The notes beneath the pieces were generated by a model. The model had not been told where the DNA came from. It saw nothing but the letters and a program-made list of their open reading frames with translations, and did not search any database. A stretch of 64,000 bases of DNA from an uncultured bacterium (GTDB taxonomy: Bacteria; Chloroflexota; UBA5177; JANWHV01): positions 320,001 through 384,000 of the forward strand of contig CAVSOU010000008.1 in the NCBI GenBank assembly GCA_963729625.1, given 5' to 3'. Below, piece after piece: positions 39,437 to 51,048 of the stretch; the stretch's first letter is position 1, and every line of letters starts with the position of its first letter. Made by a program: the position numbers and the translations under genes.

Positions 39437-39751
39437 TCATGGGCTGGCAAGAGGCAAGCGCCGGCTATGGCGAATGTGAAGCACATACACTGAATCGCCG
39501 TCGATAGTGAACAGAATCCGATACACATGAGGCTTGCGCCCATACAGCAACTGCCGCACCTCGAAAGGAAACCGCGCATTCTCGGGGGCTAGGGGGCAGC
39601 GTTCAGGCAGCTCGGCGAGGGTGTCAATCGCCTTCTCCAAGGCCAAGAACCATCGGAGGCCGGTTTCGCCTGCACCTTGAGCTAACAGCCATTCCAGTAT
39701 TGCGCCCGCGTCGCGCTCGGCTTCGGCCGAAGTCTCAACCCGAAAGGGCAT
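39437..39751 (-). CDS. Type II TA toxin, RelE/ParE family
   Basis: AERD...I..L...PERCP....R.L.......YRILFTI....VYVLHIRH. Confidence 0.9.
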   Translation of the reverse strand: MPFRVETSAEAERDAGAILEWLLAQGAGETGLRWFLALEKAIDTLAELPERCPLAPENARFPFEVRQLLYGRKPHVYRILFTIDGDSVYVLHIRHSRRLPLASP

Positions 39752-39980
39752 GCTTCTGTCGAAGCTCGGCAAGAAACTCGGCAGCGGGCCTGGTGCGTCC
39801 GGCTTTGACATCCGCATAGCCGCTGCGGATACCTTGCAGCGCCTCTTCGAAATCCTGCCGCTCCCATTCCAGGTAAGTGGCCAGCGCTTCATCAAGGGCG
39901 GAAGCAGGGTCTTGTCCGCGCCGCTGGGCGTATTCCTCCAATTGTGCCAGGCGTTCCGGTGTGAGGGGGATCGCATTCAT
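39735..39980 (-). CDS. Cognate antitoxin (RHH/ParD-like)
   Basis: Small gene overlapping the toxin start; 'IRSGYADVKAGRTRPAAEFL'. Confidence 0.85.
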   Translation of the reverse strand: MNAIPLTPERLAQLEEYAQRRGQDPASALDEALATYLEWERQDFEEALQGIRSGYADVKAGRTRPAAEFLAELRQKHALSG

Positions 39981-40388
39981 AGCTGGCGCCTCGCCTTTCC
40001 TACCTCTTATCGTATTGGGGTGAGGCCGCAAGGTCAAAGACTATGTGCGCACTGGTGGCTGGGCAGCTTGGCAGCCCGCGACGCCAGCGGTACCTGCAGC
40101 CTCGCCTGGTCCGCCTGCCACAGGGCATTTTCCCGCTGCCGCCGGGCGAGGGCGGCCGGGCGCCGGGCGTGCAGCAGCAGTCGATGGTCCTGCGCCGTCA
40201 CATACACGGCAATACGCCGGGTCATGGTAATCCCCGCATCCCGGTGGTAAAGTACTCGCAGTATCGGCTGAGAAGCCGGCTCCATGGTTCATGCTGTGTG
40301 AGCTGATCCACGATTTCCACCTCGCAGCACATTCCGCGGAGTTTGTTCTTGAGACTGTCTGAACACCGTGGGAAGGGATGCCGCAGGC

Positions 40389-40703
40389 ATGGATGTCTTT
40401 GGACTACGCGAGACGGTCGTCAGTCAGTACGCGGATTACATTCGCAGCTTCCTGCGCATCAAAGATCCCGGCATCGATGCCTATGTGACGGAAAACCTGG
40501 ATAGAGGCCGGTACTGGCCGGACCCGCTCGTCCAGCTGAACCCGAGCTTCGAGCCCGGCGACACTGTCGATGACTTGGTCGCACGCGGCGTGCTCGCGGA
40601 GGGCTGTCGCAGGATCTTCCGGCGCAACAAGGATGCCAACGGCTTGGGCGACACGCTACGGCTGCATCGGCTCAGGCAGCCTAATTCCCGTGCTTTCTTG
40701 TGA
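40389..40703 (+). pseudogene. N-terminal fragment of a large DEAD/DEAH (DUF1998-type) helicase
   Basis: MDVF.LR..VV..Y..YIRSF...WPDPLVQLNPSF...LRLHR, truncated before Walker A. Confidence 0.75.
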
Positions 40704-40711
40704 CTACGTGC

Positions 40712-41101
40712 TTAGTCTATACCGCCTGGGACATGCAGCCCTTGGCCCGCGACCTGGATTATGAGGGACCGCCTTTCGACTGGGACGAGAGGCGCCGCGG
40801 GCTCCTGCGGTCAGAGCTCGACGCATACTACGCCCGACTCTATGGCCTGACGCGGAAGCAGCTGCGGTATGTTCTGGACCCGCACGACCTGACGGATCGC
40901 GAACTGGCCGACATCTTGGACCCTTGGGAGGACGACCCCGAAGCCCCGCGCACCAAAGGCTTCCCTGGCGAGACGTTCAGGGTGCTCAAGCAACGCGAGC
41001 TACGTGAGCAACGCGAATACCGAACGAAGCGGTTGGTTCTGGAGGCGTGGGATCGGCTGGCTGCGCTCTCTATGTCTCGTGCATGGGGCCTTTGTACCTA
41101 G
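40712..41101 (+). pseudogene. C-terminal fragment of an Eco57I-like (type IIG) RM methyltransferase
   Basis: LVYTAWDMQPLARDL.YEGPPF.WDE.RR..LRSELDAYYARLYGL...FPGETFRVLK..E....EYRTKRLVLEAWD. Confidence 0.8.
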
Positions 41102-41240
41102 AAGCCTGCCGGCCGCGTTCTACTGCTCCCTGCGCAGCCCGGCACACGTAGAGGACACGCTGCTACTCGCGATCAACGCCCACCATGATGCCGACACCGT
41201 GGCCTCGATGGCCAGTACGTTGGCCGGCGCGCTCGGGCCG
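41085..41240 (+). pseudogene. Fragment of an ADP-ribosylglycohydrolase
   Basis: SLPAAFYC.L......TLLLAIN...DADTVASMASTLAGA matches the DxDT motif. Confidence 0.6.
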
Positions 41241-41417
41241 ATCATGTCGCAGAAGGATGATTCTACGTCGAGTGTTCTGCGACAAGCGGCTTCGGTAGGG
41301 CCTGAGATCGCTGAGGAAGCCTCTGTCACATAGCTCTGTAGGCCCGGTATTTCACCGGTCGTGCTCATAATCATGGCACAGTCTGTTATTCTCATTTCTA
41401 GACTTTGCCCAAGTACA

Positions 41418-42650
41418 ATGAAGGAACCGGCGCAAGGACTGCAAGTTATGATCGGTCTCCGCGACGGCCGGGATGTTGAGCTCCACGACGATGCTCGTGA
41501 GGTACGGCTCCTCGAATCACTGCACTCAATGAGGTCAGCCGAAGGCCTAACCCACAACTTCTACCGTTATCCAGCCAGTATGTCCCCATATCTAGCTCGC
41601 GAGGCAATCGAGCAGTTCACTAAGCTTGGCGACGTGATACTCGATCCCTTCGTAGGCGGCGGTACGACCGTTGTAGAGGCGCTGGCCGCTGGCCGCCGAG
41701 CTGTGGGGATCGATCTGAATCCAATTGCGACGTTCGTGACCTCAGTCAAGACGACACCTTTGAGCGATCGTGACGCGCGCACTATTCGGGATTGGGTTCA
41801 CTGTCTTGACCTGGAGACCGGTGTCTTCAACCACGACGTTGACGCCGAGCTGCGCACGAAGAACATGCCGATCTCGACATCCCGGATATTCGAACGTGCT
41901 CTTGAAGCAGTGGGTAGGCTACCGTTCCGACGGCAGCAGCTCTTCGTCCGCTGTGCCCTTCTGCGTCTCGGGCAGTGGGCCATTGACTGCAAAAGCACGT
42001 TTCCGGATCAGCGAATGATGAAGGACAGGCTGTGCGCCTTCGTCGATGAGATGATCTGCAGCCTTGACGAGTTGGTTACAGTGGCCCGAGCCAAGGGCAC
42101 TTCCAAGAGCAAGCTGAGCAGTAAACGTCAGCTGTTACAGCGATCGGCGGCGGGAATTGACGAAGACGACCGCTTGCGCAACTTACTCGGTGAGGCCCGG
42201 CTTGTGCTGACGTCTCCGCCTTATCCCGGGGTGCACGTGCTCTATCATCGCTGGCAAGTGAACGGTCGACGGGAAACTCCCGCGCCGTACTGGTTGATTG
42301 ACGAACAGGACGGCCACGGCGCCGCATACTATACCCTTGGAAGTAGGACACCATGCGGACTCAACAACTACTTCGAGACAATCACCAAGATTTTCCAGTC
42401 GGTGCGCGCCCTTATGCATCCTTCAGCCTTGGTCGTCCAGTTGGTGTCCTTTTCCGACGTGGCGAGCCAGCTGCCAGCCTTGTTGCAGGCAATGGAAACT
42501 GCGGGCTACGAGGAAGACGCACGAGTGACTGTTGATCGTTCATCGCTGTGGCGCGTGGTCCCGAACCGCCGTCGATGGTACAACCATATCGACCTCTGCC
42601 AGGAGGCGACGCGTGAGCTGCTGCTCTTCCACCGCCCATGCGGGGAGTGA
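41418..42650 (+). CDS. Amino-group DNA methyltransferase, probably N4-cytosine (motif I before motif IV); start uncertain
   Basis: THNFYRYPA, ILDPFVGGGTT, GIDLNP ... LVLTSPPY. Confidence 0.9.
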   Translation: MKEPAQGLQVMIGLRDGRDVELHDDAREVRLLESLHSMRSAEGLTHNFYRYPASMSPYLAREAIEQFTKLGDVILDPFVGGGTTVVEALAAGRRAVGIDLNPIATFVTSVKTTPLSDRDARTIRDWVHCLDLETGVFNHDVDAELRTKNMPISTSRIFERALEAVGRLPFRRQQLFVRCALLRLGQWAIDCKSTFPDQRMMKDRLCAFVDEMICSLDELVTVARAKGTSKSKLSSKRQLLQRSAAGIDEDDRLRNLLGEARLVLTSPPYPGVHVLYHRWQVNGRRETPAPYWLIDEQDGHGAAYYTLGSRTPCGLNNYFETITKIFQSVRALMHPSALVVQLVSFSDVASQLPALLQAMETAGYEEDARVTVDRSSLWRVVPNRRRWYNHIDLCQEATRELLLFHRPCGE

Positions 42651-42681
42651 CGTTGTAGCCCTACTCCCGAAATCCACGTGT

Positions 42682-45075
42682 TTAGACTGCTACCAGGCTC
42701 CGACCAAGAGTCCGAATAATGGGCACGATCACTTGAGCCAGGCCACTACAATGCTGGCTGATTGCATCCAGGTCTTCACTGTCGTCGTCCTCGTGAGCGC
42801 TATCGCTTGCTCCTCCGGCTGTGACGCGAGCCGCCGCGATGCGCAGGTTATGCTTGATCATGCCAACAGCGGCCAGCACAAGACCGTACGTATACCAGTG
42901 CTTGACCAGTGGCTTGTCTTCAGGCTTTGACTTTGCAAGCTCCGTGAGCAGGAACGTGTTGTCAACGTTGATCAGGTAGTCGTACCCACCTTCGCCGTCG
43001 TGCCGGACGCGTGGGGCATCATACAGATCGAATGCAGGGTTCTCTCTCTCCCAGTCCTCTTTGCGTATCTCCCTGATCTTCGGCAGTGCAAGGCCAGGTG
43101 TCCTTAACTGCCCAACTTTGCTGGCCGACTTACCCGAATTGCCGTGCGGCTCGCCTGGTCGGCCGGATTCATGCGCCGCGTCAGGTACTTCTGGCTCTGC
43201 CTTGAGCGTGAACGATGAGGCGAACGGCATGCCTCGGGTCCCGCGGTCAGGGTCGTCCACTGTGACCCTTACCACAATGAGGTCACCAACACTCGCGTCC
43301 CAAGGTACTCTGAAGCGTGTGTCGAACTTGCCGTTCCACAGACGCGAGTGCTCGCAGAGATTTGGTGGATCGAAGGAAATAGCGCCTGGCTGGTTGTGGC
43401 GCGAGAAGTAGTCGTTGACCGCGTCGGTCTCGAACTCGACATGGCAGGTCCTGTTCAGAGGGCAGCCCTTGACCAAGCCGGTCTTTGGCTCGTGAGCCAG
43501 CCGGAAATACGTGGGGAATCGGCGGCCCACGAACGGTGGCGCATCGCCTGGGCCAGTTGACGTGACCAGGCGCGCGCCGGCTGCAAACAAGTTCGATAGG
43601 GTAGGATCCGCGTCCAGCAGAGCCTGGAAGGCGCTCAGGGGGGCATCGGCATCAAGGTGCTTCTCCATCTCTTTCTTGCGCCGAACCTGGTTGATGCGCT
43701 GCAGGCCGGGGTGCTCCTTCAGCGCGGTCGTCAGCGCCTCCTCAATTTTGAAGTACACCTCATTGCGCCGAACGCGGTCACGCGAGGCCATAAAGAAGTC
43801 TTCCCGGACGCGGGCGTCCATGGCTGTGCAGTCGACCGTGACCAGTAGAGGTCGGCGACGATCATCCAGGTAGTCGAACTTTAGCTTGCGCTTGACGAAA
43901 TCGGGCGGAAGCGATCCATGTACCTGGCCGTTGACCATGAACGAGACACCGTGTGGCACATGCCGGTCGATGGTTCCTTCCTTGTAGACGGCGATCTGGT
44001 ATGGAAGGGTCCCGATCGTTTGCAGTGAGAGCGCGGACGAAGCAGGGAAGCCGTCCTCCAGCTTTGCGCTATCGCCGTCGTCATTCTCGGCAACGGCACT
44101 AACCCACCCGCCGATCACCGAGGCACTATAGTAGTTCGCCGCGTAGTCGCGCGTCTCCACGACTCTAAACGGGAGACAGGGAAGGTACAGCAATCGCTCA
44201 AGCTCATAGCGACCCTCGGCGGTTATGATACTCTTGGCTCTCCAGCGATAGTCATAGAGCTTTACGCACGTGCCATACGCAAGGTCGACCGCGTAGGCGG
44301 GGGCCGGGTAATTCTTTCGGGACTTGCCCGGAAGCACTCTTACACCGTCTGCCTTGAACGACGGCACCTTGCCGTTTGGCGCCAGATACACATAGACTGA
44401 GCTTCTGCGTCCGCCAGATGGCAGCATGCGCCGGACAAGCGTGAAGCCCCAGTCCTCAGCTGTGTCGTCGTCTGGGGCGACAGGGCCGTAGGGTTGCCGA
44501 CGCGATGCAATCAGCTGGTAGTTCTCCTGACCACAGAACTGCAAGATACCTGTGCCACCAGAGTTGAATTTCCCTTGTACGAAAGGAATACGCATCTTGT
44601 TGGAGCGTTGTAGCGAAACCAGTGTGTCTGGGAACCTGGCTGGCGTCTGGCCCTCGCCCCGATCGATGATGAGATAGCCCGGGTTCTGCTTGCTACCAAC
44701 AGCGACGACATTGATGTTCTCGGCGAGTGCACTCTGTTCCCTGCCGCTGAGGTTGCTGAGCCGACCTTCACGTACAGCGAAAAAGCGCTCGACAGCTTCG
44801 GTCATCGTCTGGGGAGCGTCGGGGCCTTCAGGATCAATGCCCAGCTCAAAGCACTTCGCCATGAGCATAGCGTCTATGCTATTGATGATCTTCTCCACCA
44901 GAGCAGCTGACGCATCGCTCTGCTGGTTGCCGATCGTAGAGAAGTTGTTCTCAAAGCCCAGGGGCTGCCACACGGACTCGTCGTCAACCAAGTATCCCGC
45001 GTTGCTGAGTATGGCAGTCACGGCGTCTTCGGTCTCTGCTTGGAGTAAGTGGCTGAACAGGGTCAAGGTGTCCAT
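42682..45075 (-). CDS. GHKL (MORC/HSP90-like) ATPase-domain protein, ~800 aa
   Basis: ALVEKIINSIDA (N-box), IIDRGEG (G1), GKFNSGGTG (G2), GTCVKL; AGAAAGGAG RBS. Confidence 0.8.
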   Translation of the reverse strand: MDTLTLFSHLLQAETEDAVTAILSNAGYLVDDESVWQPLGFENNFSTIGNQQSDASAALVEKIINSIDAMLMAKCFELGIDPEGPDAPQTMTEAVERFFAVREGRLSNLSGREQSALAENINVVAVGSKQNPGYLIIDRGEGQTPARFPDTLVSLQRSNKMRIPFVQGKFNSGGTGILQFCGQENYQLIASRRQPYGPVAPDDDTAEDWGFTLVRRMLPSGGRRSSVYVYLAPNGKVPSFKADGVRVLPGKSRKNYPAPAYAVDLAYGTCVKLYDYRWRAKSIITAEGRYELERLLYLPCLPFRVVETRDYAANYYSASVIGGWVSAVAENDDGDSAKLEDGFPASSALSLQTIGTLPYQIAVYKEGTIDRHVPHGVSFMVNGQVHGSLPPDFVKRKLKFDYLDDRRRPLLVTVDCTAMDARVREDFFMASRDRVRRNEVYFKIEEALTTALKEHPGLQRINQVRRKKEMEKHLDADAPLSAFQALLDADPTLSNLFAAGARLVTSTGPGDAPPFVGRRFPTYFRLAHEPKTGLVKGCPLNRTCHVEFETDAVNDYFSRHNQPGAISFDPPNLCEHSRLWNGKFDTRFRVPWDASVGDLIVVRVTVDDPDRGTRGMPFASSFTLKAEPEVPDAAHESGRPGEPHGNSGKSASKVGQLRTPGLALPKIREIRKEDWERENPAFDLYDAPRVRHDGEGGYDYLINVDNTFLLTELAKSKPEDKPLVKHWYTYGLVLAAVGMIKHNLRIAAARVTAGGASDSAHEDDDSEDLDAISQHCSGLAQVIVPIIRTLGRSLVAV

Positions 45076-45103
45076 CAAGTTCTGACGCTCCTTTCTAGGG
45101 CCG

Positions 45104-46273
45104 TCAGGCGACCGGGTCCGACACGAGTTCAAGGGATAGCTGTGCGGTTGAGGCCCGACTGGAGGAGCCTCCCTTCCAACCGGCGGAGCGCAGGTTGGTG
45201 AGTATCTGCTTCTCCTGAGCACCCAGGGGAAGCTCCAGGTGATCCTTCAGCACAGCCTGAGTGGCAGTACGGGCCTGGCGATTAGACACGACGGACCCGG
45301 CGACAATGCAGACATTGTCCCAGAGGGGGTTGACCTCCCTCCCAACAGCCTTTCGCCAGTCGACCAGCTTGAGCTCTGCAAGGCGTTGACGCCAATCCTT
45401 GGGATGGTATTCAAGGAGCGCATTTCCAACGGCGCCGAGGGCGCGCAGCACGACGCTATGCGTGTTGATCTGCTCCTGGCGCAGGAGTTGCGCCGGCATC
45501 TTGTCGTCCTTGACCCGCTGCCAGTCAGGGATTGCAGAGGCGACTTCGGCCCAATACTCGACGGCAAGCGCCAGCTTCTCCTTGTAACCCTTCGTCCCCT
45601 TAGCATCGATTTTGGACCCGAGCAGCTCGCCGGTGGCGTCGTACAAGGACGACAGAGTCAGCAGTTTGGGAGAGCGCAGCGGAATCGACATGCGCTCTTT
45701 GTCGATCATGCCCTTGAACACTGGGACCTCTTCAGTCATCTCCATGGTAAGGGTGGACAGATTGTCGCGGTGGTCGTACAGAATGTCGAGCGACTTAGAC
45801 GTCTTGTGCGCAAAGCGGTTGAGGTCGGAGAACATCTGCTGGAGTCTATCCAGGTCCTCCATCGGAAACAGTAGGACGCTGATGCGGTCCTTCCCGATTG
45901 CGGGACTGTCCTTGAGCGCCAGTGCGATTGCGGCAGCTCGGTGCTGTCCGTCGTTGAGTATGAACTGCATGTTCTCTAGGTCCATCTCGATGGTGCCGAC
46001 ATTCTCGTCACCGTCAGATTGGACGAAGTTCACTGGGCAGTCATAGGAAGCTGTGATCGATGAGAAGATGTAGCCATCCTCATTATCGATCATGTACTTT
46101 GCGATCTCCGGCACGCGCGACGCGTTTAGGACGCGCTGGGCACGCAAGGAGGGCTCCAGCTGCTCCCAGTCATTGAACTTGAAGAAGCGCGGCACCTCGC
46201 TGAGGGCCATCGTGGTTGCATAATAGGATCTCTTGCCGAGTGTGGCGCGCAATGCGGGGAATCTCACTTTCAT
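45104..46273 (-). CDS. dndB: DndB-like DGQHR-domain protein
   Basis: RAQRVLN..RVPEIAKY, YIFSSITAS, INDGQHR-type motif (LNDGQHR), QQMFSDLN, YDHRD; AAGGAGG RBS. Confidence 0.9.
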   Translation of the reverse strand: MKVRFPALRATLGKRSYYATTMALSEVPRFFKFNDWEQLEPSLRAQRVLNASRVPEIAKYMIDNEDGYIFSSITASYDCPVNFVQSDGDENVGTIEMDLENMQFILNDGQHRAAAIALALKDSPAIGKDRISVLLFPMEDLDRLQQMFSDLNRFAHKTSKSLDILYDHRDNLSTLTMEMTEEVPVFKGMIDKERMSIPLRSPKLLTLSSLYDATGELLGSKIDAKGTKGYKEKLALAVEYWAEVASAIPDWQRVKDDKMPAQLLRQEQINTHSVVLRALGAVGNALLEYHPKDWRQRLAELKLVDWRKAVGREVNPLWDNVCIVAGSVVSNRQARTATQAVLKDHLELPLGAQEKQILTNLRSAGWKGGSSSRASTAQLSLELVSDPVA

Positions 46274-46286
46274 GGTCTGCCTCCTT

Positions 46287-46422
46287 AGCTCAGATTACTG
46301 CAGCTCCTATACACCAAGGCTTGAGCTGGCCTGAAACAAGATTATCAGCTCTTGTGATGAGTGTCAAGAGCTCTTAAAGTATTTCGGTAGAGCTCCTATT
46401 ACTTGCGTCTAGCAGCTCCTAC
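46287..46422 (-). promoter_or_regulatory. Sigma-70 promoter of dndB embedded in a phased AGCT(C[C/T]TA) repeat array
   Basis: Minus strand TTGACA(46367-46362)-17-TAATCT(46344-46339); AGCT at 46287, 46302, 46324, 46347, 46369, 46391, 46414. Confidence 0.8.
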
Positions 46423-47241: not shown

Positions 47242-48124
<883 letters not shown>

Positions 48125-48150
48125 TTGCCACAACGCCAACGGCCACCATA

Positions 48151-48597
48151 CTACGGCTTCAGCAGGTCACTCAGCACGACTACATCCAGACCCTGCAAGC
48201 GATTGAACACCGGATCGTTGGTGATAAGGTGGGTGCAACCGGCAACCAGCGCACTGGCGGCGTGGATGGCGTCCGGTGTGCGTAGCCCCAGATCCGCTCG
48301 GATCTGGGCAGCTCGCTCCAGAACCTCCAGGGAAACATCGACAAGCCGCAGATCGGGCGACTCTTTGAGCAGGCGGCGATATGTGTCCGCAATGAGCGCG
48401 TTGCCCGACTTGAGCGGCGCCACCAGCGTCTCGGTAAGCGTCAGGCCGCTGGTGTGGAGGCTGCACTCGCCCGCACCTGCGCTCCGCCACAGAGGGTAAA
48501 GCAGTGCCGCGTACGGTGCCACGTGTTCCACGCTGTAGATGACACAGTTCGTGTCCAGATAGATGAGGCTGCCGGTTGGCAGCGTCAGCCGTCCCAC
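48151..48597 (-). CDS. VapC-family PIN toxin
   Basis: IYLDTN, LTETL, LRTPDAIHAASA, LITND. Confidence 0.92.
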   Translation of the reverse strand: MGRLTLPTGSLIYLDTNCVIYSVEHVAPYAALLYPLWRSAGAGECSLHTSGLTLTETLVAPLKSGNALIADTYRRLLKESPDLRLVDVSLEVLERAAQIRADLGLRTPDAIHAASALVAGCTHLITNDPVFNRLQGLDVVVLSDLLKP

Positions 48598-48818
48598 GTA
48601 TCGCGCTCGGCACTTATGTAGGCATCCACCTCGTCGGCAGTCGTGAACAGCTGCTGCCCGGCACTCTCCTCGAGCAGCTCGATTGCGTGCCTGGCAGGCG
48701 TGGCCGATTCCAGCTCAATGGTGACACGGACGCGCTGACCAGGCGCCAGTTCCGGGACACACACGGCGAGCGTGCCGTCAACGGCGACCACGGCGCTGCG
48801 ATGCAGGGACGAGACCAT
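48585..48818 (-). CDS. Cognate antitoxin
   Basis: Small gene overlapping the toxin; 'DEVDAYISAERDTWD'. Confidence 0.82.
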   Translation of the reverse strand: MVSSLHRSAVVAVDGTLAVCVPELAPGQRVRVTIELESATPARHAIELLEESAGQQLFTTADEVDAYISAERDTWDG

Positions 48819-48911
48819 TGTATGCCTCCAGATTGCCGTCGATTTGACTTGTATGGTACCAGATGCACATTGGTGCCGGGCGGCACCGCTCGTTAGGTTA
48901 TCGTGCAGCGC

Positions 48912-49172
48912 TCACTCACCATAACATCTTCGAACGCCCTGGCGCCTGAACCATACTTCCAGAAATGGTTGCGCGCGCTCGCAGACCCTTGGTTGCGGAA
49001 TGCCCAGGGCGGCCGCGGCCTGGACTCGGGTCCAGCCTCGCTCTACGATGGCGTCGTGAATCTGGAGTCCCAGGGCAGCCTTAGCCGGCAACTCCTCTGG
49101 TTCCAGCAGGCCAAGATCGGCGAAGATAACGCCGCTGCCATGCACCACCTCGATGTCTTCATCCGTGTTCAT
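48912..49172 (-). pseudogene. HigA-like XRE antitoxin, 3' disrupted
   Basis: GSGVIFADLGL...KAAL...I...GWT..QAAAALGIPQPRV, then homology is lost. Confidence 0.72.
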
Positions 49173-49340
49173 GCTCCTCGCCATCCTTGAGGTGCTTGGC
49201 GTCAAGCTGTCGCGCCCAGGCTAAACGGGCGCGGATCAGCTCTTGGTCTACCCGCGCTATCTCCATCCCGTGGGGTGATTTCTTCTGGAACGCATGCAGC
49301 ACGTAGATGGCGCTCCGCAGCACCACAGTGACAACGCTCA
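49159..49340 (-). pseudogene. HigB/RelE (Gp49-like) toxin, C-terminal half only
   Basis: AIYVLHAFQKKS..G......ELIRARL; N-terminus replaced by the GNAT gene. Confidence 0.78.
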
Positions 49341-49865
49341 CCATCTGCCGGCTGCTCGCAGCGTCGCCTCGATCGTCCGCAGCGGCAGTATGGGCGACAG
49401 CGGCGCATCCAACAGTGGGACCGCGCCATAGCTGCCGTACCATGTCGCTACCCGCGCATTCTTCGCATCGATGAGCAGCGCGACACCGCCTACTTCCGTC
49501 GCGGCCAACAGGCAGCGTCTGCCTGCCGCGAGCAGCAATTGCCCACCCAAGCCCCGCCCCTGCAGCCGGCGGTCGACGGCAAGACGAGCCAGGCGGAAGC
49601 ACGGTACGTCATACCGTGCGAGCCCCCTTCGTACAATCTCCGGCGTCCGCGCATAGTCGACGGATGCAGGGCTCACACTGTAGAAGCCGAAAACGATGTT
49701 GTCGTCCATGTCGTCGACCGCGACGAAGGTCTTGGCGCCGCCCAGCTCATGGCTCCGACGCGCGTGGTGGCGCAGGAATTCATTCAACGCGTCTTCGCCG
49801 CAGTCGAATGCCTCCCTGTTGTGTCGCTTGCCGATCGGCTCTTCATGCCAGGCCGTGAGGCTCAT
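49338..49865 (-). CDS. GNAT family toxin (TacT/AtaT-like tRNA acetyltransferase)
   Basis: [35 protein letters not shown]. Confidence 0.92.
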   Translation of the reverse strand: MSLTAWHEEPIGKRHNREAFDCGEDALNEFLRHHARRSHELGGAKTFVAVDDMDDNIVFGFYSVSPASVDYARTPEIVRRGLARYDVPCFRLARLAVDRRLQGRGLGGQLLLAAGRRCLLAATEVGGVALLIDAKNARVATWYGSYGAVPLLDAPLSPILPLRTIEATLRAAGRW

Positions 49866-50140
49866 GCCTGGCGCGGGAGCGCCCGAGCAGCGGCGAGAAG
49901 CCGTGCGTTTGGCGGAGGCGGATTTTCCAGCAGGTCCAGCACCCGTAGACTGTCCCGCTCGCTGAGGCGCAGGTGCTCTGCTTCTTCGATGATGTCCGTG
50001 GCAGCACGTAAGGCATGCCGCACGACAAAATCCGTCAGGTCGGTGTGCTGCAGTGCCACCGCGCGCAGCAGGATGGCCTTTTCCTCAGGCCGAATGCGGA
50101 GCGATATCCGGTTGTTGTCTTCTACCGCTAATCGGGGCAT
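49862..50140 (-). CDS. DUF1778 RHH antitoxin (TacA-like)
   Basis: RISLRI..EEK..L.RA......LTDFV...A......LDLLENPPPPNARL. Confidence 0.93.
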   Translation of the reverse strand: MPRLAVEDNNRISLRIRPEEKAILLRAVALQHTDLTDFVVRHALRAATDIIEEAEHLRLSERDSLRVLDLLENPPPPNARLLAAARALPRQA

Positions 50141-50157
50141 GAACCTGATCCCTCCTC

Positions 50158-50200
50158 GTGTACGTATTCAAATAGTACAGCGGAACGGAGAAAAGGTCAA
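50158..50200 (-). promoter_or_regulatory. Promoter/operator of the DUF1778-GNAT module
   Basis: TTGACC-17-TACTAT; imperfect palindrome TGTACTATT-TG-AATACGTACA over the -10. Confidence 0.7.
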
Positions 50201-50215
50201 CGCAGTGACGACGTC

Positions 50216-50271
50216 CGCGCCCAGGCTATTCGAGCGCGGATCGGCTCCTGGTCTACCCGCGCTGTCTCCAT
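50216..50271 (-). repeat. Second partial copy of the higB 3' segment (49211-49266)
   Basis: CGCGCCCAGGCTA...GGTCTACCCGCGCT.TCTCCAT present at both sites. Confidence 0.8.
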
Positions 50272-50341
50272 GAAAGACAGCTGCTTCCGATCCGGCAATC
50301 CCTGCCGATGCAGGCGCAGCGGCCTTCGCCGTGCAGGGGCA

Positions 50342-50376
50342 TTGTCAATCCGATTGGATTGTGCTACAAGTGACAC
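50342..50376 (+). promoter_or_regulatory. Probable leaderless promoter of the phd-vapC module
   Basis: TTGTCA-17-TACAAG then 6 nt to the ATG; no RBS; AATCC-GATT-GGATT palindrome in the spacer. Confidence 0.55.
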
Positions 50377-50652
50377 ATGACATCAGTTGGAATTCGCGAG
50401 CTGCGACAACGCGCCAGCGAACTGCTCAGACTGGTCGCGCAAGGCGAGATCGTCGAGGTCACCGATCGCGGTCGGCCGGTAGCGCACCTCGTCCCGGTGC
50501 CGGCAGGAACCGCCCTTGAGCAGATGCGTGCGGCCGGTGAGATTGACCCGGCCTCGGCCGACCTTGACGATCTCCCTGAGCCTCTGGTGTTGCCCGACGA
50601 TGCGGAGACGCCATCGGCTGCTCTGGTCCGGCTACGCCGTGAGGAACGCTAA
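50377..50652 (+). CDS. Phd/YefM family antitoxin
   Basis: VGIRELRQRASELLRLV..GE.VEVTDRGRPVAHLVP. Confidence 0.93.
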   Translation: MTSVGIRELRQRASELLRLVAQGEIVEVTDRGRPVAHLVPVPAGTALEQMRAAGEIDPASADLDDLPEPLVLPDDAETPSAALVRLRREER

Positions 50653-50655
50653 GCG

Positions 50656-51048
50656 ATGGCGGCCACCTATCTGGACTCATCGGCCATCGTCAAGCTGGCC
50701 GTCCGCGAGCCAGAGTCTGATGCCTTGCGGCGCTATTTGCGTCGCCGGCGCCCGCTGCTCTCAAGCGCGCTGGCGCGCACTGAGGTGCTTCGGGCCCTGC
50801 TGCCAGGCGGAGAGTCGGCCGTGGCCGCCGGTCGGCGTGTTCTCGAGCGGGTTGATCTGGTACGAGTGAACGACCGAATACTGAATCTGGCCGGCTCACT
50901 GCTGCCGCTTGAGCTGCGATCCCTGGATGCCATCCATCTGGCCACCGCTACACGTCTTGGAGCCGAGCTGAGCGAGATCGTTACCTACGACGAACGGATG
51001 ATGGCAGCCGCTCGCTCCATGGGCCTCAAGACTGCCACGCCGAACTGA
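50656..51048 (+). CDS. VapC-family PIN toxin
   Basis: YLDSSAIVKL, EV.RAL, LRSLDAIHLATA, TYDER. Confidence 0.93.
   Translation: MAATYLDSSAIVKLAVREPESDALRRYLRRRRPLLSSALARTEVLRALLPGGESAVAAGRRVLERVDLVRVNDRILNLAGSLLPLELRSLDAIHLATATRLGAELSEIVTYDERMMAAARSMGLKTATPN

Follow-up and report, generated by a model that had tools for sequence, protein, structure and literature searches.

GHKL ATPases (MORC and the families paraMORC1-5) have been predicted to operate in restriction-modification (RM) operons since 2008 (Iyer, Abhiman and Aravind; PMC2292703). According to the published accounts of VcSduA (PMC12137116) and Tiamat (bioRxiv 10.64898/2026.09.30.754977), the ATP site of these proteins is required for anti-phage activity. 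The second protein type of concern here is DndB. Salmonella DndB is reported to be a dimer that autoregulates its operon and binds two palindromic boxes in the promoter (PMC4507180). A comparative study has described DndB as consisting of a ParB-like domain and a fused HEPN (PMC3632139), nuclease or nucleoside triphosphatase (NTPase) roles have been discussed (PMC10853773) and a DndB-like protein is reported to bind ATP and GTP (PMC12704722). In the present work, we analyze a stretch of 64,000 nucleotides, hereafter the window, from an uncultured bacterium of the Chloroflexota (UBA5177; JANWHV01; assembly GCA_963729625.1, contig CAVSOU010000008.1, positions 320,001 to 384,000 of the forward strand). 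It carries a cassette in which a dndB gene, a gene for a GHKL ATPase and a gene for an SPPY DNA methyltransferase (MTase) stand together and which may constitute a horizontally mobile, RM-like module. In window coordinates, the cassette is laid out as follows:

45104-46273, minus strand: dndB, 389 aa, with the motif LNDGQHR, first gene of a two-gene operon
42682-45075, minus strand: ATPase gene, 797 aa, ATG at 45075 and stop at 42682
41418-42650, plus strand: SPPY amino-methyltransferase gene, ~410 aa, frame open back to 41361
46286-46418, minus strand: promoter/operator region of the dndB-ATPase operon, with phased hexamer repeats

An earlier note on this DNA had described a dndB-like gene followed at 28 bp by a gene for a GHKL protein of about 800 aa, converging on an intact SPPY methyltransferase whose stop lies 31 bp away, the trio being intact amid gene shards and richer in A/T than its flanks. 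This description holds. The ATG of the ATPase gene (797 aa) is situated 28 bp past the stop of dndB (389 aa) and is preceded by an AAAGGAG ribosome-binding site, and the convergent MTase and ATPase genes leave 31 bp between their stops. The exact MTase start, between 41418 (an internal ATG) and 41448, is uncertain. The listing of open reading frames (ORFs) contains no further ORF inside the three-gene module. GC content amounts to 58.5% in the cassette versus 62.6% in the whole window (standard deviation 1.6% among windows of the same size); the cassette is the lowest-GC stretch of its size, and the five lowest-GC windows all overlap it. The shards nearby were recognized by fragment matches to ADP-ribosylglycohydrolase, Eco57I/MmeI-type and GNAT proteins.

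The same three genes are encountered together elsewhere. Scanning the genomes of 185,579 species returned 305 ATPase relatives, and the best 79 loci were examined, gene presence being scored by tblastn. In 14 of these 79 loci, a dndB gene of the same strand immediately precedes the ATPase gene; an MTase of the window type (c1) is present in 29, and all three genes occur together in 12. Ten of the 12 three-gene loci share the convergent layout of the window, their 3' ends overlapping by up to 53 bp or being separated by up to 31 bp; the dndB and ATPase frames, as called, overlap by 4-8 bp or stand up to 62 bp apart. Since all other neighbouring genes in the 12 loci fall into singleton clusters, the conserved unit consists of exactly three genes. 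The carriers are labelled Pseudomonadota, Chloroflexota, Methylomirabilota, Acidobacteriota, Gemmatimonadota and others, at least six phyla in total, and the ATPase is found in only 5 of 301 genomes of the window's own phylum and in none of four genomes of the same genus; this is the pattern of a horizontally moved cassette. The earlier note had staked its reading of a three-component system on such co-occurrence in other genomes, and the neighbourhood survey upheld it in these 12 of 79 loci: the trio is a real, recurring unit. The 'MORC-type' label is discussed below.

Phylogenies indicate how the components travel. The ATPase tree (66 rows) contains a clade of 29 rows (clade A; SH-aLRT 99) with nearly all MTase-linked members and, inside it, a subclade of 18 rows (support 99) in which 15 are DndB-linked (14 by label and locus L017). 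In the DndB tree (FastTree; supports not printed), 12 linked DndBs and that of the window form one group, and the subgroups (L018,L022), (window,L002,L003), (L020,L024) and (L004,L016,L019,L021) are common to the DndB and ATPase trees. Canonical, dndC-linked DndBs of the same phylum fall outside the linked group, at 39-40% identity. As a single operon, dndB and the ATPase gene have been inherited together, and the SPPY MTase accompanies them in the same convergent position.

The cassette possesses a further conserved element that the earlier note overlooked. Upstream of dndB, the sequence A(G/A)GAGCT(G/C), with the core SAGCTS, is repeated six times, from starts at 46301, 46323, 46346, 46368, 46390 and 46413, with spacings of 22, 23, 22, 22 and 23 bp over a span of ~130 bp, and a degenerate seventh copy, GAGCTA (46286-46291), stands beside an AAGGAGG ribosome-binding site. 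One copy abuts TTGACA (46362-46367) and the next abuts GATAAT/TAATCT (46339-46346); the array overlaps both the -35 and -10 elements as well as the ribosome-binding site of dndB. Both promoter elements were identified by eye, as the consensus scan for promoters and terminators, with its chance-level counts, omitted them. Across the window the hexamer is not enriched (142 observed versus 123 +/- 11 expected), so the phased cluster is local, and by our own arithmetic five successive steps of 22-23 bp at that density have a probability of the order of 1e-10. Conservation in the array is confined to the hexamer cores, for which reason Tandem Repeats Finder detected no repeat between 46200 and 46600.

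When exact hexamers are counted, ten of the other 12 three-gene loci show the 22-23-bp phasing ahead of dndB, and degenerate copies can be distinguished by eye in L020 and L022. The repeated hexamer is CAGCTG in L018 (4836-4902) and GACATC in L003 (2528-2594), where the 22-bp step is kept. Regular spacing is missing from all DndB-less loci, even where the MTase is closely related, and the array therefore goes with DndB. We also considered that the promoter hexamers might be target sites of the MTase, as would fit L003, whose hexamer differs and whose MTase is displaced, but the lack of an array in DndB-less loci with related MTases led us to set this aside as the main explanation. L003 and L018, the two loci with other hexamers, also have MTases displaced in the MTase tree; their change of hexamer may correspond to an altered DndB specificity or to a link between the array and the MTase target.

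Judged by its profile matches, the product of 45104-46273 is a full DndB-family DGQHR (ParB/Srx-fold) protein. Against TIGR03233 it reaches 341.6 bits, above the curated cut-off of 328, and against PF14072 337.4 bits (E 1.1e-100; cut-off 29.1), with further matches to TIGR03187 (230 bits) and to the DndB model of PADLOC (E 2.6e-110). All residues of the DGQHR motif (D108, G109, Q110, H111 and R112) are invariant in 16 DndB sequences, and so are R44, Q46, R47, R53 and K160. A complex prediction for ATPase residues 296-797 with DndB gave a score of 0.00 and a mark of 0.32, and counts neither way.

This protein is the sole DndB of its genome, and the cassette is not a decayed dnd locus: no phosphorothioation genes stand alongside. 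The earlier remark that dndC, dndD and dndE are missing from the module was borne out on a larger scale, since none of the three was found in the window's genome (87% complete). dndC was detected in none of five other carrier genomes, one of which is a single 4.4-Mb chromosome, and dndD exceeded the cut-off in none of these five, with matches of only 18-23 bits against a cut-off of 246. Neither gene is thus present over cut-off in any of the six carriers, the window's own genome included. As a positive control, the dndC search gave matches over cut-off in 8 of the 301 genomes of the phylum.

By sequence, no Pfam, NCBIfam or PADLOC match was obtained for the ATPase; nothing in the PDB was found by phmmer or with a profile of 72 sequences, and a profile comparison with a single HATPase_c_3 protein returned a probability of 0.04. 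The GHKL motifs EKIINSIDA, DRGEG and GKFNSGGTG pointed out by the earlier note nevertheless proved sound. They are placed as E61-K62-x2-N65-x2-D68, D138-R-G-E-G142 and G168-KFNSGGTG176, and among 72 ATPase homologues K62, N65, D68, G140, G142, G168, G173 and G176 are invariant and E61 and D138 are kept in at least 90%. Modelling with AlphaFold2 (predicted local distance difference test score 85.4; predicted template-modelling score 0.83) and a Foldseek search, the fold check that the earlier note had recommended, agree with these motifs: the matches comprise Topo VI-B (3e-10), HtpG/Hsp90 and GyrB 43K, with 404 matches at E<=1e-3. The model is divided as follows:

Residues ~40-300: GHKL (Bergerat) ATP-binding domain
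Residues ~300-470: transducer/middle domain
Between the transducer and the Ig-like domain: long helical linker
Residues ~518-633: Ig-like beta-sandwich
Residues 634-662: disordered loop
Residues 666-797: small beta unit and C-terminal helical bundle

As modelled, the fold is GHKL plus transducer and not specifically MORC. The label 'MORC-type' was too specific, as Hsp90 is a slightly better structural match than MORC. Weaker sequence links agree with the GHKL fold. The window ATPase itself gives no match to Pfam HATPase_c_3 (PF13589); sub-threshold matches to this profile fall in the corresponding region of 9 of 23 members of the ATPase family (E 0.015-0.12), one distant plasmid relative passes it (26.1 versus a cut-off of 25) and the language-model neighbours of the ATPase include clusters with PF13589 on 26-30% of their members. 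The family is large and anonymous: it comprises at least 1431 homologues of ~790 aa, those with a name in their source all being called 'hypothetical protein', and the profile gathered 3431 clusters at 50% identity from 1.84 billion representatives. No longer, fused forms of the ATPase were found, which is weak evidence, and no relative was found in the phage collection.

The MTase presents the motif order HNFYRYPA, LDPFVGGGT (motif I) and, after ~180 aa, TSPPYPG (motif IV), LDPFVGGGT and TSPPYPG being kept in at least 90% of 28 homologues. Members of the PF01555 family generally have motif IV before motif I, an order that is reversed here. The MTase matches PF01555 (E 7.4e-15, 55.9 bits; cut-off 26.7) at profile positions 160-213 only, that is in the S-adenosylmethionine-binding, motif-I part, and PADLOC MTase_II at E 6.5e-20. 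Its sequence matches in the PDB cover motif I only (TTHA0409-like methylase, 4e-08; N4-cytosine MTases, 1e-4; CcrM, 1e-3).

Across the ATPase family, the slot directly upstream of the ATPase is occupied by DndB, a PIN protein (7 loci), a ~340-aa family (11 loci), HTH_17, HTH_3, HARE-HTH or the MTase itself (4 loci). The PIN gene takes this place in L006, L007, L008, L028, L033, L042 and L080. A ~90-aa ORF precedes it in L008 and L042, suggesting an ordinary VapBC pair, and no small antitoxin-like ORF was called in the other five. The PIN gene may have come to lie there by chance, as part of such a pair, or may be a swapped-in partner of the ATPase. The second family (~340-430 aa; L014, L026, L029, L035-L038, L041, L043, L046 and L051, many of them from methanogens) has no Pfam or PADLOC match; it carries a conserved WGQYNK motif, and its C-terminal stretch looks winged-helix-like by eye. 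Other neighbours of ATPase relatives are type I RM subunits, Dam, NERD, SIR2 and NYN, and distant relatives adjoin a C5 MTase, an N6_N4 MTase or Vsr. No helicase or restriction endonuclease family was met among the upstream and downstream neighbours of clade A.

Taking these observations together, we lean slightly towards reading the cassette as a horizontally mobile, three-gene RM-like module with an MTase for self-marking, a GHKL clamp or sensor and a DndB that is mainly an autoregulator. In this scheme, self DNA would be marked by the MTase. The effector arm would be the GHKL ATPase, which is probably dimeric, as other GHKL proteins are, and would clamp or sense unmarked DNA in an ATP-gated manner. 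DndB would bind the repeat array, much as Salmonella DndB binds boxes in its promoter, and would keep a potentially self-harmful ATPase operon under tight autoregulation; with its DGQHR motif kept it may add an NTP-dependent switch or a nicking activity. Controller (C) proteins play a comparable autoregulatory role in type II RM systems. The regulatory role is proposed because the array overlaps the promoter, because Salmonella DndB autoregulates and because alternative occupants of the upstream slot are of helix-turn-helix type or winged-helix-like.

Several observations weigh against this reading. No nuclease fold was recognized in the ATPase, whose C-terminal model yields Ig-like matches only, with residues 666-797 barely covered, and this leaves the killing step unexplained. 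The other ATPase clade (B, 37 rows), about half of the family, has a single c1 MTase. The MTase tree agrees with the ATPase tree in shallow groups only, L003, L018 and L022 being placed elsewhere; MTases may have been exchanged between cassettes. L009 and L010, which are near-identical, combine the ATPase with a DndB of a different lineage and have neither a phased array nor, within 7 kb, a c1 MTase. The PIN genes in the upstream slot (7 loci) fit an effector as well as a regulator, and a genome 87% complete leaves room for an unlinked dnd cluster. Finally, we infer the binding of DndB to the array from their co-occurrence only.

A different division of labour, which we judge rather unlikely, would make DndB chiefly an enzymatic effector whose DGQHR site nicks DNA or hydrolyses nucleotides, with the GHKL ATPase directing it to unmethylated DNA and the upstream slot hosting interchangeable nucleases (DndB, PIN). 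The invariance of DGQHR and of several basic residues in the 16 sequences speaks for it, and so do the lack of a recognizable nuclease domain in the ATPase, the PIN genes of the same slot in seven loci and the dndB and ATPase frames, whose 4-8-bp overlap or separation of up to 62 bp suggests coupled translation. Published descriptions of a ParB-like domain with HEPN (PMC3632139), of possible nuclease or NTPase roles (PMC10853773) and of ATP/GTP binding (PMC12704722) are in line with such an activity. However, the association of DndB with the promoter array suggests that the protein recognizes a specific DNA sequence at its own promoter, and several other slot occupants are of helix-turn-helix type or probably winged-helix, without nuclease motifs. 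Of the seven PIN loci, five have no called antitoxin-like ORF, and L008 and L042 look like ordinary VapBC. The effector and regulator roles of DndB are mutually compatible.

It is improbable, although conceivable, that the cassette provides epigenetic immunity or silencing without any nuclease. The MTase would again mark self, a GHKL dimer would entrap unmarked DNA and block its replication or transcription, in the way eukaryotic MORCs compact chromatin, and the ParB-fold DndB would be an NTP-dependent clamp loaded at the iteron array and coupled to the ATPase. If true, this would represent a prokaryotic forerunner of MORC-type silencing with a ParB-like loader.

Functions outside defence seem quite improbable. 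The cassette could be an epigenetic or repair device, in which a MutL-like ATPase reads hemimethylated or mismatched DNA and DndB is a regulator, or else a selfish addiction cassette without host benefit. The GHKL plus transducer architecture is indeed common to MutL, Hsp90 and topoisomerases, a Vsr mismatch endonuclease follows one distant relative and no nuclease was found in the ATPase. On the other side stand the patchy spread (5 of 301 genomes of the phylum, none of four in the same genus), the dip in GC, the toxin-antitoxin genes and methylase remnants around the cassette, and relatives that adjoin type I RM, NERD, SIR2, NYN and Dam; such patchiness, base composition and neighbours are typical of mobile defence genes, not of housekeeping repair. 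Lastly, it is hardly credible that the trio represents three unrelated neighbours with a dndB left over from a lost dndBCDE operon, since, even if this DndB exceeds the canonical equivalog cut-off and gene fragments lie around it, the trio recurs in 12 other loci of several phyla, the DndB and ATPase subgroups match, the linked DndBs group apart from the dndC-linked ones and neither dndC nor dndD was found over cut-off in six of six carriers.

The immediate surroundings of our preferred RM-like module are marked by gene decay and duplication:

40368-40703: ORF without family match
40700-41101: methylase shard, a 133-aa piece of Eco57I/MmeI-type N6-methylase proteins of 1300-1450 aa
41004-41333: ADP-ribosylglycohydrolase shard, C-terminal tip, covering profile positions 227-278 of 287 only
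47276-47659: shortened copy of a GNAT toxin gene, the full gene being at 49338-49865

The remnants at 40368-41333, just upstream of the MTase, look like the wreck of an earlier RM-like system. The shortened second GNAT gene results from a duplication of 300 nt at 95% identity (47242-47541 versus 49304-49603). More widely, the cassette is set amid toxin-antitoxin genes, namely ParE (39437-39976), PIN (48151-48597) and TacA with the GNAT toxin (49338-50140), in a cluster that spans 39437-40037 and 47242-51048. An ORF of 192 aa resembling DUF559/MTES_1575 (Vsr fold) lies at 47546-48124, 1.3 kb upstream of dndB on the opposite strand; it is outside the module and has no counterpart beside the cassette in other loci.

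More distant relatives of the ATPase are associated with other types of DNA modification. Three plasmid-borne relatives (L097, L098 and L099, from Ensifer, Hymenobacter and Devosia) share 30-33% identity over ~70% of the ATPase length. Their neighbours encode PAPS-reductase, DUF4007, class-V aminotransferase, GmrSD_N/DUF262 and SIR2 proteins, a gene set that we take to resemble Ssp-type phosphorothioation clusters. A gene annotated as 'sensor histidine kinase' also adjoins the ATPase relative in two of the three plasmids, and the Ensifer copy, the only one scanned, contains HATPase_c_3 and HATPase_c. These relatives may represent an unnamed reader module of Ssp-type phosphorothioation. Their identification with SspFGH was rejected, as the proteins described under that name are Walker-A and FtsK-like and not GHKL (PMC8092258). 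As ATPase relatives adjoin N6/N4, C5 and phosphorothioate modification genes, the family suggests itself as a general reader or effector of DNA marks. Another genome of the window's phylum (G034, contig 2, 5047-12471) carries an operon of DndB, an unnamed ORF, a 572-aa HATPase_c_3 ATPase and a 278-aa ORF, which converges on a type II restriction endonuclease and an Eco57I-type methyltransferase and has a VapBC pair upstream. Its DndB is a sister of the cassette's DndB and its ATPase a true HATPase_c_3 protein (E 2.6e-17). DndB with a GHKL ATPase next to DNA-modification genes is therefore a recurring theme composed of non-orthologous parts.

If a defence function is confirmed, the cassette will be a three-gene addition to the anti-plasmid and anti-phage repertoire. 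The cassette also places DndB, so far treated as an accessory of phosphorothioation, in a second and independent role beside GHKL ATPases, and its phased operator array offers a cheap experimental entry to the control of a harmful operon by a ParB-fold protein.

The cassette may be compared with C-protein type II RM systems. In both, the first product of an operon binds (here, would bind) repeated operator boxes in its own promoter and limits or delays a harmful component, and the MTase is transcribed separately. Unlike the small helix-turn-helix C proteins, the putative controller is a ParB-fold protein of 389 aa with a nucleotide-binding motif, and the controlled gene encodes a GHKL ATPase, not an endonuclease.

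The window DndB is similar to the DndB of dndBCDE operons (He et al. 2015, PMC4507180) in that it exceeds the TIGR03233 cut-off, carries DGQHR, is encoded by the first gene of its operon and has repeat boxes over its own promoter. It differs by the absence of dndC/D/E, by the GHKL ATPase downstream and by its membership of a separate group at 39-40% identity. The operators differ as well: 4-7 phased hexamers at 22-23 bp in the cassette versus two TACG-N10-CGTA palindromes for the DndB of dndBCDE operons (PMC4507180).

With the prokaryotic MORC and paraMORC1-5 proteins, as portrayed in PMC2292703, the ATPase shares an N-terminal GHKL domain with intact ATP motifs, a transducer and a sporadic, laterally mobile distribution. 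DNA methylases nearby, Vsr beside distant relatives and a proposed role as the ATP-driven, DNA-manipulating arm of an RM system are also common to both (PMC2292703). In contrast to those families, the window ATPase remains below the HATPase_c_3 threshold, its C-terminal half is Ig-like with helices, and ATPases of its type have no conserved SF-II helicase or restriction-fold endonuclease beside them, their partner being DndB. The words ParB and DndB are absent from the main text of that study (PMC2292703). On this comparison by description, the window ATPase may belong to one of the paraMORC families.

Like paraMORC3/Shedu VcSduA (PMC12137116) and Tiamat (bioRxiv 10.64898/2026.09.30.754977), the protein is a GHKL ATPase with a clamp-like middle region, and, as reported for Tiamat, methyltransferases figure among its neighbours. 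VcSduA and Tiamat carry a PD-(D/E)xK nuclease domain, unlike the window ATPase, in which none was recognized, and they have no DndB partner. The Tiamat preprint also mentions 'Hsp90-like defence proteins' with HD or phosphoesterase domains; these were discarded as having a different architecture.

The GHKL, MORC, HATPase and Hsp90 terms are absent from the main text of a 2024 reappraisal of Dnd systems, and no description of DndB paired with a GHKL ATPase was found in the open-access literature. A search of PADLOC-DB 2.0.0 (5027 models, E<=0.01), which presumably holds models of Tiamat and Shedu, gave no match for the ATPase, only the DndB model for DndB and only the generic MTase_II for the MTase. 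In agreement with the novelty suggested by the earlier note, no PADLOC-DB 2.0.0 system is matched by every component. The theme of GHKL ATPases in RM loci is already known; what looks undescribed is the trio that associates such an ATPase with DndB and an MTase.

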